This document shows, one piece after another, positions 23,045-30,671 of a stretch of 64,000 bases of DNA. The translations under genes and the position numbers were made by a program. The stretch spans positions 15,243-79,242 of the IMG/VR virus record IMGVR_UViG_3300027808_002177, one strand, 5' to 3'. The stretch's first letter is position 1. The number at the start of each line of letters is the position of its first letter. Under the pieces are notes generated by a model. That model was not told where the DNA came from, did not search any database, and saw only the letters and a list, made by a program, of their open reading frames with translations. The DNA is from a virus (Duplodnaviria > Heunggongvirae > Uroviricota > Caudoviricetes).

Positions 23045-23354
23045 CAAATACGGCTTCCCAATTGTGGCTGCTGGCGGCATGGGATACTTGATATTCTACG
23101 TATGGCAATGGGCAACACAGGACATTAAGCCAGTGCTAAGTGCTGCTAGTAATACGCTTATTGCGCTGATTGATCGTGTGCGTATGTTAGACAACGATTT
23201 AATACGATTAAATCAAAAGGTTGATGTTGTACTACACTTACGCGGCAAGATTATTGATGGTGAACGTGTAGTAGAACAGCAAAAAGTAGATCGCGAAGCT
23301 GATGAAAAGTTCCGCGACGCTGTTAACATTGATACTAAGCCAGTTAAGAAATAA
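23022..23354 (+). CDS. small single-pass membrane protein, paralog B
   Basis: FPIVAAGGMGYLIFYVWQW TM helix. Paralog of the 22339..22620 product. Confidence 0.5.
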   Translation: MDLANLINKYGFPIVAAGGMGYLIFYVWQWATQDIKPVLSAASNTLIALIDRVRMLDNDLIRLNQKVDVVLHLRGKIIDGERVVEQQKVDREADEKFRDAVNIDTKPVKK

Positions 23355-23727
23355 CTATCCCGTTTTGGGCGTACCCTTCAACCACTGAATCGTAATAATG
23401 CTGACTTGGCTTACAACCAGTCAGCTTTGTTCTATAGTGCGGTGTCATATAATATACCCAGGCCTGTGTTAGTTCTCCATTGTATTCTACTGACGACATA
23501 ACGCGATTGTAAAATGTTGGATACCCTTCTCGTATGTCTAGGTCTTGCAATTCATTTTCATCAATTTCCCATAATATGCCAATTGCTGTAACACCTGGCG
23601 TTTCAAATACATTGGCAAACTGTAACATTTCCCACTTGTAGTCTAATAGTACTGCTGGTCCTAATCTTTTGCTTGTCTTAGACATAGCATTGTTGTTGGT
23701 ATTCATACCATATGCAAAATATAACAC
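23344..23727 (-). CDS. gamma-glutamyl cyclotransferase / AIG2-like family protein
   Basis: N-terminal LYFAYGMNTN matches the YFAYGSNM signature. A conserved Glu lies in LDIREGYP. Size is 127 aa. Confidence 0.75.
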   Translation of the reverse strand: MLYFAYGMNTNNNAMSKTSKRLGPAVLLDYKWEMLQFANVFETPGVTAIGILWEIDENELQDLDIREGYPTFYNRVMSSVEYNGELTQAWVYYMTPHYRTKLTGCKPSQHYYDSVVEGYAQNGIVIS

Positions 23728-23728
23728 G

Positions 23729-24439
23729 TTAAACTCCTAATTTATGAATATTGTTTTGTATGTGTTCCCATACACCTTCTGGACTGCCGTCGGGAAATAC
23801 TAATTGACAACTAACTGTTACTCTCAATCCCGGACCTTGTATTACATGATGGAATCGATTGGTGCGTAAAATTGCACTTGGCGCAGACGATACTACACTG
23901 AAATCTGGGGCCGGTATATCTGCCCAATTTAGTTTATCGTCTTTGAGTTGTTCAGCACAATCGGCAAAGCAACTGATTCTCTCTTGTGTACCCAATTGTT
24001 CGTTTGCCGGAAAAATAGCAATGCCTTTATTTGGCAAATAGTTCCACCAACGTATTGCTCCGGGTTCTTCAGCCAGCTCGTAATAACTCAATCGTGCTTC
24101 AAGCATAGCAGGACCCGAAGGTGCGCGGACTCCATCGCAATGTATTACCCAACTGGTCTGACTCTTGGCACTTAAAAATAATGTCATTCGTCTTGTTTTA
24201 AGTCCAAGCGGTTTTAAGAACTCATTTGTGTTGGCAATAGTAACAGGGAAACTCTGATCGGCGTTGCCAACATTCGATAATCCGTATCCTGCACCTTCTA
24301 TTTTGTCTCTGTGCGGTACTAATGCTGTTTTAATAAAGTTCGCCTTCTCTACAGGATCTAAACGTAGAGTCAATGGAAAAAAGTAACCTGGATCGCGGGC
24401 CGGCTTTTGTGAAAAGTCAAAGTCTAATTGTTGTGTCAT
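23729..24439 (-). CDS. putative cupin/2OG-Fe(II) oxygenase-like protein (paralog 1)
   Basis: IHCDG (HxD) ... RTNRFHHVIQGPGLRVTVS (distal His plus Arg-x-Ser). Paralog of the next gene. Start re-placed at the ATG giving an ATGA overlap. Confidence 0.5.
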   Translation of the reverse strand: MTQQLDFDFSQKPARDPGYFFPLTLRLDPVEKANFIKTALVPHRDKIEGAGYGLSNVGNADQSFPVTIANTNEFLKPLGLKTRRMTLFLSAKSQTSWVIHCDGVRAPSGPAMLEARLSYYELAEEPGAIRWWNYLPNKGIAIFPANEQLGTQERISCFADCAEQLKDDKLNWADIPAPDFSVVSSAPSAILRTNRFHHVIQGPGLRVTVSCQLVFPDGSPEGVWEHIQNNIHKLGV

Positions 24440-27870: not shown

Positions 27871-28656
27871 TTACGCCACACCTTGCTTAACAACTTGTAT
27901 ATGACTTGGGTCAAGTACAGCAAATTGCACACCATCGGTCCAGGCCCAATATCCTTCGCTACGGGCGTAGTTAGCAATTTCCTCACCGTCCGCAAACTCA
28001 TCTAACTCGTCCGGCAAGTCATTGTCATCATCTAAATTTAGAATGTCATCAGCAGGTCCCGAAACTTTTGCCATTACTACTGTGCCACCATAACCGCCAC
28101 CTGAGTAATTCTGATCTCCTACATTGAAGAATATACCAGTATGTGATTTCTTAAATCCATGTTGTTGAATTTGTTGTGCAGCCTCTGCGCTTGTTTCGTG
28201 TCCCATTATTTTTGAAAACATAACACCAGAGCTTTCTGCCACACTTGTTTCCCATGCCATTGCTTTGCCACCTTTAACAGTTGGCTTAAAGCCTTGTCCT
28301 CGATAGAACTTTGTTAGCTTGGCTTGGCTAACTTGTCCCTTGTCCCACGGGAATAGCGTAAGTGCAATACCATCTTCACGGGCCATCGTTTGCAATTCTT
28401 TCATTGCTTTAGAGCCAACACCTTGACGCAATGGATATGCTTGGAACCATTTGACTTCAACTGCGCCGCGCTTACTAAAACTTGGAACAAGTTCAAACAT
28501 AGCAAACTGCTGGTCGTCACCTGAACCCCATACCATAACGTGATTGTTTTGCATAGTGTGCGGGTACTTGGCATAGACTTTATCAATCCATGCTCGAGCT
28601 GCATTATTATTGCTGCCCAATTTAATGTCAGCCTCAAGTAATTCACGTATTAGCAT
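27871..28656 (-). CDS. GNAT-fold acetyltransferase-like protein with MLIRELL N-terminal leader
   Basis: Motif A AYPLRQGVGSKAMKELQTMAREDG and motif B KFYRGQGFK. N-terminal MLIRELLEAD leader. Acidic C-terminal tail. Confidence 0.6.
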   Translation of the reverse strand: MLIRELLEADIKLGSNNNAARAWIDKVYAKYPHTMQNNHVMVWGSGDDQQFAMFELVPSFSKRGAVEVKWFQAYPLRQGVGSKAMKELQTMAREDGIALTLFPWDKGQVSQAKLTKFYRGQGFKPTVKGGKAMAWETSVAESSGVMFSKIMGHETSAEAAQQIQQHGFKKSHTGIFFNVGDQNYSGGGYGGTVVMAKVSGPADDILNLDDDNDLPDELDEFADGEEIANYARSEGYWAWTDGVQFAVLDPSHIQVVKQGVA

Positions 28657-28676
28657 AGCTTACCACTTACGTAATG

Positions 28677-30671
28677 TTATCTCATCTCTGGAACAACTGA
28701 TACTTCGGTGCCGTGTCCATATCCGTTTCTAGTTAGCCATTGAATTGCAATACGGTTTGCATCACTTTGACTATTGCCAATACCGCCAAAAGTATGTAGC
28801 ACTCTATCACTGCCGTCTTTAATTAGCCATTGTCCAGTCCACTCGCCACTGCCAGTTGGCGCACCCGTCGTTGCAGTTGCTGCAGGAGCAGAAATCTTAC
28901 CGTACATGTAATCACCTGGGTTCTGTGCTTTAAAGTCTTCTAGGTATTTAAACGCTTCTTCAGAACTGGCAGCATAGTAGTTCTTAACAATCTCATTGGT
29001 GTCACGATTCTTGATATACCAATTTGGTTCTTGCTGCGGCACCTCAGGTTTTTTACCTTGACGCTCTAACTGTGCTTGACGAATGAAACTCTTTAGTGCT
29101 GCCTTGGGCATTTGTCCCGCGGCATACTGTGCAAAGTAAGCCATGGTATCATTATGAGTTTTAGGTTGTAGAATTGCATACAACTTTTTCAAATATTCTT
29201 GTTTGTACTTTTCTGGATCTACAGCAGCATCTAGTGCTACAACGAAACGTAGCAGGGTGTTTGTGATTGTACCTGGGTCGCTTGCATATTCTCCTAACCA
29301 ATCACCACCGGGACTACGAAACTCAATGTAGCCGTCCTTTGTGTTAATACTGGTGAACTTTTGAGTAGCACCCGAGTGAATTGCTTTGCTTGCAAGTGAA
29401 TCTAAACCTGTCTTCATTTTCCCCAGCAATACTTCTGCATCTTCGGGGCGTTGACTCACACGATTTTTAACTTCGTTCATTGCACTTTTGCAATAGGTAT
29501 TACCAGCACGACCAAACTTTTCTAAAATGTAATTGTCACCCATCAGCAATGCTAATTTGACATAATCTAACTTGCCCATGTCGCCGGACCAACCTTCAAC
29601 GCTGACGTTAATGTGCAAGCCAGTTGACTTGTTGGTGTAAGCGCCATACATGCCAGCCCACTTGGCAACTTTGTCTAGATCAGACAACAATTCGGCGATA
29701 GGCAATGCTGGGCTAACAAACTCTAAACCGCCATCTGCGCTGTCGTCTGCGGTTAAGCTACCGTCAGGCTCAACAACATAGTGCGAGTTACTGGCATCAG
29801 GACGAGCCACACTGCCCGAGTGATAAGAGCCGCTGGATTTGACTTCTCGTCCAATTGCTTTGGCAAAATCTTCAGCAACAGATTCTGCGTTGACTTCGCC
29901 ACTGGCCCCGGAGTTAGTGTAGTATGGCCATTGTATATCAAACTCTCCCGAAATATCACTCATGTAGCGGTACCTGGCATCTTCTAAGAAGTCACCTTCA
30001 TCTGCGGTACCTTGATTTTCTTCACGGTACTCGTCTAACGCAGAGTCGTACATGCTGCCGTTGCTTTCCCATTCAGTTGTGACTAATTCTTCAAATTCAT
30101 CATCAGTAGCACTCTTTGCTTCCATGTAGTGATTGTAATTTTCGTCTGCTTCACGAGCAGCCTGTTGTGCATCCAATTTGGTGTAACGCGGCGCACTATT
30201 ACCAGCAGCCATTGCAGCATCCACAGCTTCTTCATCTAACCCTTGTGATTCTAAATGTTCGCGGATTTTATCTTCTTCTACCCACTCGTTATTGTTGATC
30301 CAATCACGTAAGTAATCTTCCCCGTCTTTGCTCCAGTCTTCGTCAATCTTTTCGCTTTCCCACTCGTAATAGCGTTCTTGTAATTTTTCAATCAAGCGTT
30401 GAACTTGATCACGGCTGTTGTAGTCGCCATCATTGAAGAATTCTTCAATGTCTGAAAAGCTACGTGTACGTTCATCGTTATCGTAATCAGCTTCCCAGTC
30501 GTCATCATCATCATCACTTTGAGCACCAGGTACAATCATTTCAAATTCCATACCTGCTCGAGCATTGATCTTGCTGGCCAATTGCTTTAGACTTGACGGG
30601 CTCATGTTGATTTCGTCTAGCTGTTGTTCAGCTAATCTATTATTTTGTGGGTTGGAATCTCGTAGTTTCAT
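28677..30671 (-). CDS. large acidic protein with putative amidoligase (glutamine-synthetase-like, Amidoligase_2-type) domain
   Basis: GGLEFVSPALP ... STGLHINVSVEG resembles the E-F/L-x-S-P and G-x-H-V-x-V motifs of phage amidoligases. Poly-Asp/Glu N-terminal region. Start placed at the ATG giving MKLRDSN (30671). The track start at 30737 would overlap the curlin gene. Confidence 0.45.
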   Translation of the reverse strand: MKLRDSNPQNNRLAEQQLDEINMSPSSLKQLASKINARAGMEFEMIVPGAQSDDDDDDWEADYDNDERTRSFSDIEEFFNDGDYNSRDQVQRLIEKLQERYYEWESEKIDEDWSKDGEDYLRDWINNNEWVEEDKIREHLESQGLDEEAVDAAMAAGNSAPRYTKLDAQQAAREADENYNHYMEAKSATDDEFEELVTTEWESNGSMYDSALDEYREENQGTADEGDFLEDARYRYMSDISGEFDIQWPYYTNSGASGEVNAESVAEDFAKAIGREVKSSGSYHSGSVARPDASNSHYVVEPDGSLTADDSADGGLEFVSPALPIAELLSDLDKVAKWAGMYGAYTNKSTGLHINVSVEGWSGDMGKLDYVKLALLMGDNYILEKFGRAGNTYCKSAMNEVKNRVSQRPEDAEVLLGKMKTGLDSLASKAIHSGATQKFTSINTKDGYIEFRSPGGDWLGEYASDPGTITNTLLRFVVALDAAVDPEKYKQEYLKKLYAILQPKTHNDTMAYFAQYAAGQMPKAALKSFIRQAQLERQGKKPEVPQQEPNWYIKNRDTNEIVKNYYAASSEEAFKYLEDFKAQNPGDYMYGKISAPAATATTGAPTGSGEWTGQWLIKDGSDRVLHTFGGIGNSQSDANRIAIQWLTRNGYGHGTEVSVVPEMR

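Follow-up and report, generated by a model that had tools for sequence, protein, structure and literature searches.

We analysed a 64,000-nt stretch (the window) of the Caudoviricetes record IMGVR_UViG_3300027808_002177 (IMG/VR, positions 15,243 to 79,242). An initial annotation had grouped three genes between 23344 and 30671 into one peptide-ligase-like set: an AIG2/GGCT-type gamma-glutamyl(amine) cyclotransferase (GGACT), a GNAT-fold protein (here p261) and an acidic, amidoligase-like protein of 664 aa. The reading that we favour, and to which we give about an even chance, is that this interval is a mosaic of three units and not one ligase operon, and that the amidoligase and p261 are packaged in the phage head. 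A genuine GGACT, an amidoligase and a link between their two families are all present, and the three genes do not form a single unit here, with four genes and a spacer lying between the amidoligase and the GGACT gene. All genes of the finding are on the minus strand, at the coordinates of the initial annotation. The features on which the argument turns are the following.

28677-30671, minus strand: jumbo-phage-type Amidoligase_2, 664 aa, with a glutamine-synthetase-like fold
30612-30671, minus strand: N-terminal leader of the amidoligase, MKLRDSNPQNNRLAEQQLDE, which ends in L-D-E directly ahead of the conserved INMSP
29802-30524, minus strand: acidic helical insert of the amidoligase, 241 aa, net charge -47, which splits the first strand off the ligase core
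27871-28656, minus strand: p261, 261 aa, with the leader MLIRELLE, a GNAT-like module and an acidic C-terminal domain without known fold
28252-28623, minus strand: hyper-conserved GNAT-like module of p261, residues 12-135
20919-22226, minus strand: 435-aa protein with the leader MKLRELIMME, of the same leader class and outside the interval of the initial annotation
37722-38933, minus strand: 403-aa protein with the leader MRLRELLSE and a C-terminal glycoside hydrolase 19 (GH19) domain
23344-23727, minus strand: GGACT/AIG2-type gamma-glutamyl(amine) cyclotransferase, 127 aa (Pfam PF06094 and PF13772)

The 664-aa protein was identified through its relatives. Three proteins of about 55% identity (P0036, P0044 and P0091) matched it with E values of about 1e-171 to 1e-220 and passed PF12224 (Amidoligase_2) with 36.8-41.3 bits against a cutoff of 22. 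A precomputed database table gives PF12224.14 for the identical protein P0001, and phrog_2443 ('amidoligase enzyme') matched the 664-aa protein at an E value of 0.002 only. The amidoligase has matches in more than 1,900 protein clusters. In an alignment of 22 diverse homologs the blocks AGMEFEM, VEPDGS, GLEFVSP, TGLHINVS, GYIEFRSPGGDW and RFVVALDAA were invariant or nearly so, as was the GYIEFRSP motif across the family, and the catalytic motif residues E42, E44, E301, D303, E317, H353, E450 and R452 were invariant. The E-F-V-S-P and G-L-H-I-N-V motifs pointed out in the initial annotation are present as GGLEFVSP and TGLHINVS. Six motif blocks align one-for-one with those of canonical amidoligases of about 330 aa that adjoin GGACT genes. 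As the homologs pass PF12224 and the motif blocks align, the product of 28677-30671 is a relative of Amidoligase_2 with a glutamine-synthetase fold. The outcome that would have refuted the initial annotation, a product with neither an amidoligase nor a GS-like fold, was therefore not obtained. It looks catalytically intact and is predicted to be an ATP-dependent carboxylate-amine ligase. A search of PDB sequences with the amidoligase family profile gave no meaningful match.

Short phage Amidoligase_2 proteins (PF12224; phrog_2443), reportedly described by Iyer et al. in 2009, are said to have a glutamine-synthetase fold. Like them, the window protein carries the motifs G-x-E-x-E, D-x-S, E-x-V-[ST]-P, G-x-H-[IV]-x and G-[TY]-[IV]-E-F-R on a glutamine-synthetase-like fold. 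Unlike them, it is twice as long, with a 241-aa acidic insert, small C-terminal domains, a leader and an H-x-N motif; its gene does not adjoin a GGCT or GAT-II gene, and the Pfam model misses it directly. Residues 1-20 are the leader, 21-49 contain the first catalytic strand (GMEFEM), 50-290 form the acidic insert, 291-540 the core and 541-664 two small alpha/beta domains. A start at the GTG at 30737 would lengthen the open reading frame (ORF) to 686 aa; the ATG at 30671 was taken as the start because the homologs and the shared leader support it. Poly-acidic stretches had been noted earlier; in the insert, Asp and Glu make up 29% of residues 50-290 and the net charge is -47. Only about 45 aa occupy this position in canonical short amidoligases.

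The amidoligase is of a type specific to large aquatic phages, which has an acidic insert in the core and two small domains after it. In IMG/VR, 340 stretches carry the family, on contigs of up to 524 kb, and uncultured jumbo phages are among its carriers. An identical 664-aa protein in the same gene order was found on four freshwater metagenome contigs. By megablast, the region had no match among 50,697 phage records, and there was no close relative among sequenced phages. At the protein level, two homologs from cultured phages were found by tblastn, CDS196 of Agrobacterium phage Atu_ph07 (AUZ94978.1; E value 4e-21) and RsoM2USA_26 of Ralstonia phage RsoM2USA (6e-16). They have the leader, first strand, acidic insert and core in the same layout as the window protein; unlike it, they have a shorter C-terminus and are annotated as hypothetical, and they are only 26-30% identical to it.

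A common N-terminal leader occurs on four window proteins, namely the amidoligase (MKLRDSNP...LAEQQLDE/INMSP, the slash marking the junction), p261, the 435-aa protein and the 403-aa GH19 protein; the GGACT has none. A strict form of the leader pattern matched 4 of the 58 window ORFs, against a rate of 3.6e-4 per internal position. Residues 1-22 of the amidoligase are predicted to be disordered (predicted local distance difference test, pLDDT, <50). Its E20 is nearly invariant, and [LI]-x-E stands ahead of I[NK]M in all homologs; the junction reads KLTE/LKMNSS in Atu_ph07 and KLSE/LKMDMS in RsoM2USA. Independent confirmation of the pattern comes from three related loci, L005, L007 and L008, where leader-bearing genes form arrays. 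In L007 (8252-14606) the genes flanking the amidoligase carry the leader, and in L008 (10001-17622) nine consecutive genes do, with starts such as MRA[NT]EF, MKSYEFINE or MKSFEFLSE.

In phage T4, the capsid-targeting sequence MKTYQEFIAE (bioRxiv 10.1101/2021.01.19.427310) sends diverse internal proteins into the prohead, where the gp21 protease removes it (bioRxiv 10.1101/2021.01.19.427310; PMC3012670); Alt is processed at ITE-6 (PMC5694885). The window proteins resemble T4 IPI-III and Alt (PMC3012670, PMC5694885) in that a short leader ending in [LI]-x-E is found on diverse proteins, some of them enzymes, and in that a homolog occurs in virions. The likeness extends to the leaders themselves (MKTYQEFIAE in T4, MKLRELI in the window, MKSYEFINE in L008). 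They differ in that the cargo here consists of an amidoligase, a GNAT protein, a GH19 protein and other enzymes, the amidoligase is acidic and not basic, and cleavage and packaging are predicted for the window phage. In mass spectrometry of purified Atu_ph07 virions, 14 unique peptides covered 30% of CDS196 (PMC6102473 supplement). CDS196 (57.9 kDa) is encoded two genes from a T4-like portal gene and eight from a gp21-like gene (CDS204). According to this evidence, the amidoligase and p261 are probably head-packaged, protease-trimmed enzymes that are delivered with the DNA.

Some relatives of the amidoligase are giant fusions of 1,500-2,100 aa (L008 5511-10004, L020 7418-11947, L085 813-5357, L086 8639-14920 and L049 8543-13309), in which the amidoligase domain is joined to Zn-peptidase (M48/M78), GH19, deaminase or GNAT domains. 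A DLFE/INM site is kept before the internal amidoligase domain, and the retention of [LI]-x-E/INM at an internal fusion junction suggests that the domains are released by proteolysis. In joining amidoligase relatives to Zn-peptidase (M48/M78), lysozyme-like GH19, deaminase and GNAT domains within 1,500-2,100 aa, these fusions are like the polyvalent proteins that phages and conjugative elements encode (Iyer et al. 2017, as cited in PMC11318856). Unlike in polyvalent proteins, the domains are separate genes in the window, and the fusion junctions of the relatives keep a linker that resembles a protease site.

The p261 gene starts 20 nt past the amidoligase stop codon. A GNAT fold, proposed in the initial annotation, may be present in residues 12-135, which form a compact predicted module with the secondary-structure order of a GNAT; at the level of Pfam the matches stay below threshold (PF13508, 15.7 bits against 27; PF00583, 14.9 against 20.7). 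The glycine-rich loop that follows strand 4 in GNAT enzymes and binds the acyl-CoA pyrophosphate is present as LRQGVGS, with R77, G79, V80, G81 and S82 invariant in the family alignment. Among phages whose amidoligases share only 45-50% identity with that of the window, and whose neighbouring genes are about 50% identical, the 124-aa module keeps 77-90% identity, and its third codon positions are only 50-64% identical; high protein identity together with low third-position identity indicates strong purifying selection. Recent horizontal transfer was rejected as the cause of this conservation on the same third-position figures. The module also occurs alone or joined to GH19, NUDIX, nucleotidyltransferase, HD, ParB-like or other GNAT domains, and tblastn of the module against cultured phages gave no match.

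The surroundings of the amidoligase gene were followed in a sample of 88 loci with 10-kb flanks, in which GGACT genes were sought with an iterated profile. In 7 of the 23 clusters (65% identity) of the window amidoligase type the GNAT module lies within 10 kb. In four lineages it immediately follows the amidoligase gene, and in one the two are fused. The link between GNAT module and amidoligase is moderate.

In the favoured reading, unit 1 (28677-30671 with 27871-28656) consists of the amidoligase and p261. Both would enter the prohead, undergo trimming and reach the host together with the DNA. In the host, an amine or a protein would receive an amide bond from the ligase, for which a gamma-glutamyl bond is the most plausible type, and the GNAT protein would acylate a target.

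Several points weigh against this reading. An hmmscan with PF12224 gave no match on the 664- or the 686-aa protein, even at E values up to 10, so the PF12224 assignment comes through the homologs of about 55% identity and not through the direct scan; the model misses the window protein because its first catalytic strand is cut off from the remaining core by the 241-aa insert. A single motif change separates the protein from canonical amidoligases, the second His of H-x-H being Asn. The leader pattern was defined post hoc on data already seen. Among the best 80 of more than 600 matches to a gp21-type protease in two scans of viral contigs, none was on a contig with the amidoligase. Internal proteins of T4 are basic, and a strongly acidic amidoligase is an odd protein to find inside a head. 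Presence in virions is known for the distant Atu_ph07 homolog only, which shares only about 30% identity with the query across 35% of its length. The p261 model cannot be relied on in its C-terminal half (pLDDT <50), and at most of the amidoligase loci both the GNAT module and GGACT are missing within 10 kb.

Between unit 1 and the GGACT gene lies a second group of genes, which is given here with the spacer that precedes it and the larger cluster to which it belongs.

27200-27870, no strand: ORF-free spacer of 671 nt between the amidoligase/GNAT pair and the cyclase-p254-p248-GGACT group
25148-27199, minus strand: fusion of a CHASE2 sensor with an adenylate/guanylate cyclase (PF05226, 1.3e-43; PF00211, 5.6e-19)
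24436-25200, minus strand: p254, a paralog of p248 (36% identity)
23729-24475, minus strand: p248, of an orphan phage family with invariant H-x-D...H...R-x-T
30688-35050 and 23729-27199, minus strand: curli-like cluster, also found in L005, L102 and L103

From the amidoligase stop to the GGACT start there are 4950 nt, which agrees with the distance of about 5 kb given in the initial annotation, and this tract holds four genes and the 671-nt spacer. Rfam gave no match anywhere in the window, and the predicted folding of the spacer was not unusual (z -0.5). The curli-like type VIII secretion cluster comprises CsgF, CsgG, two curlin-repeat proteins, FecR, the CHASE2 cyclase and p248, in an order that is conserved across distant relatives. 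L102 and L103 have the same curli-FecR-cyclase-p248 order, with the amidoligase absent from the module and no GGACT gene after p248. The CHASE2 cyclase and p248/p254 are therefore part of the flanking curli/FecR module and not of a ligase system, and the cyclase with its two orphan paralogs (23729-27199) would be unit 2 of the mosaic. Curli operons have been described in pelagimyophages, there without recognised curlin subunits, FecR or cyclase (PMC7029224).

The p248 family is small, with only 31 representatives among 1.84 billion proteins in an exhaustive hidden Markov model (HMM) search. That search gave no link to a known superfamily, and a profile search of PDB found nothing significant. 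The H-x-D...H...R-x-T pattern resembles that of 2-oxoglutarate (2OG)-Fe(II) oxygenases; as the HMM search linked p248 to no known superfamily, the motif is all that points to such a candidate function. Genes of the p248/p254 family always follow the CHASE2 cyclase, except in L014, which has p248-GGACT without a cyclase. In L102, an acyl-carrier protein is encoded between the CHASE2 cyclase and the p248-family gene. We also considered p248 as a diverged amidoligase, from its slot just upstream of GGACT, and rejected this since the iterated amidoligase profile never recruits it and the motifs differ.

Four small ORFs lie on the plus strand at 22339-23354, in a region otherwise on the minus strand; two of them are paralogous and have hydrophobic N-terminal segments. 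A similar island of small genes on the opposite strand adjoins GGACT or p248 in L001, L005, L102 and L103. Many auxiliary genes are found at 7345-16369 and 40000-58000. They encode a UDP-glucose dehydrogenase-like protein of 783 aa, two radical SAM proteins, a second GH19 protein, a papain-family peptidase, a TauD dioxygenase, a nitroreductase, UvdE, a Band 7 protein, a sigma-70 region 4/LuxR-type regulator and a further bona fide GNAT.

The AIG2/GGCT gene at 23344-23727 is as first annotated. Its product matched PF06094 (E value 1.6e-12, 48.5 bits against a cutoff of 22.8), PF13772 (5.8e-11, 43.1 bits against 27) and phrog_2520 'gamma-glutamyl cyclotransferase' (2.9e-15). The N-terminal YGxN motif is conserved (YFAYGMN, residues 3-9), and Glu67 in EGYPTFYNR is invariant in the GGACT alignment. 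From general knowledge of the family, we take Glu67 to be the catalytic Glu. A search with the single protein as query returned close relatives only, and an alignment profile was needed to reach further. With GGACT alone as bait, 82 viral loci outside the clade of the window were fetched. An Amidoligase_2-type ORF was present in 68 of them, nearly always immediately upstream and on the same strand; PF12224 was confirmed by Pfam in examples of these adjacent amidoligases. After clustering at 90% identity, the amidoligase was directly upstream in 31 of the 45 GGACT clusters, nearby in 6 and absent in 6, and 2 ended at a contig edge. The co-occurrence of AIG2/GGCT genes and amidoligases in phages, on which the initial annotation had drawn, is hence real at the level of families (37/45). 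The window GGACT belongs to the EGYP[TA]FY subfamily, which is normally paired with an amidoligase.

In the window this pairing is loosened. The GGACT gene starts 1 nt past the p248 stop and is translationally coupled to p248, not to the amidoligase. From the amidoligase side, GGACT was found only in the window's own clade, within 10 kb in just 3 of the 23 clusters. Both points speak against the earlier idea of the set as one unit. The GGACT is a genuine and standard enzyme parted from its usual partner. As unit 3 (23344-23727) it would be made during infection, and its probable activity is on gamma-glutamyl-amines, whose gamma-glutamyl moiety it would cyclise to 5-oxoproline with release of the amine. 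It may therefore recycle or erase the product of the ligase; by analogy with the association of the two families, GGACT and ligase may cooperate in the window phage.

The three genes could instead be functionally unrelated neighbours, which we regard as possible but doubtful. The GGACT would then need no partner to act on gamma-glutamyl compounds of the host, or would work with the cyclase and with p248/p254, which are co-transcribed with it, and the amidoligase/GNAT pair would have been inserted into a curli-cyclase module. This is what one would read from the gene order of L102 and L103, where the curli-FecR-cyclase-p248 series stands without amidoligase or GGACT, from L014, where p248-GGACT is kept without cyclase or curli genes, and from the 1-nt spacer between p248 and GGACT. 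In Bacillus phage G, likewise, two GGCT genes lie in tandem and no amidoligase is annotated next to them. However, the same GGACT subfamily elsewhere lies overwhelmingly beside amidoligases, and the window type of GGACT occurs only where an amidoligase is found a few kb upstream on the same strand.

As in the initial annotation, amidoligase, GNAT protein and GGACT could make up one system that adds and removes gamma-glutamyl or peptide tags; it would be a dispersed form of the amidoligase/GAT-II/GGCT/ATP-grasp cassette, and we hold this to be rather unlikely. The gene set is annotated as a 'peptidoglycan modification cassette' in phiEco32-, LUZ24- and RIO-1-like podoviruses and in PaP3 (PMC5498523, PMC11945000), and L099 carries a canonical Amidoligase_2 - GAT-II - GGACT triad. 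Like the cassette of phiEco32, LUZ24, PaP3 and RIO-1, the window combines an amidoligase with a GGACT whose subfamily is found paired with amidoligases in most viral loci, and the two genes are on the same strand, less than 5 kb apart, and occur together in three related clusters. Unlike the cassette, they are dispersed over 5 kb with unrelated genes between them, and the source is a jumbo phage and not a podovirus. The GAT-II peptidase for which the initial annotation had suggested a check was not detected among the ~60 larger ORFs scanned in the 64-kb window, and neither was an ATP-grasp protein or a second COOH-NH2 ligase. The non-adjacency, with four genes and the 671-nt spacer intervening, the coupling of GGACT to p248, the 20 of 23 clusters without GGACT within 10 kb, and a head-targeting-like leader on the amidoligase and not on the GGACT all speak against one system.

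It is improbable that the amidoligase-like protein is non-enzymatic here and serves as a structural protein or a decoy, with its function residing in the acidic insert (for example, as a head-borne mimic of nucleic acid). In favour of this, the insert with its net charge of -47 is kept even in Atu_ph07 and RsoM2USA, H-x-H has become H-x-N and a homolog is found in virions. Against it, the other catalytic motif residues are invariant across the 22 diverse homologs, which argues for retained catalysis.

An extension of the favoured mosaic reading, which we think unlikely as a whole, is that large T4-related aquatic phages carry an arsenal of leader-tagged enzymes, among them the acidic-insert amidoligase, the hyper-conserved GNAT and a GH19 lysozyme. 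These would be encoded as separate genes or as giant polyproteins with [LI]-x-E retained at the junctions, released within the head by the prohead protease and injected with the DNA. The amidoligase and GNAT protein would gamma-glutamylate and acylate host amines or proteins at the start of infection, and GGACT would later reverse or recycle the adduct; polyamines may be one candidate substrate.

Phage amidoligase/GGCT systems were predicted in 2009 and, to our knowledge, their substrate is still not known. The enzyme families are familiar ones; the array of leader-tagged enzymes and its link to the virion have, as far as we know, not been described before. The amidoligase family is abundant, and its cultured representatives, Atu_ph07 and RsoM2USA, open it to experiment; both the array and the virion link can be tested in these relatives. 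Should the leader be a true capsid-targeting signal, then a ligase and an acyltransferase enter the host of these phages along with the DNA. The two would join the few ejected enzymes known so far, among them T4 Alt and the virion RNA polymerase of phiKZ, and by its sequence the leader would offer a simple means of predicting which proteins of metagenomic jumbo phages are ejected.

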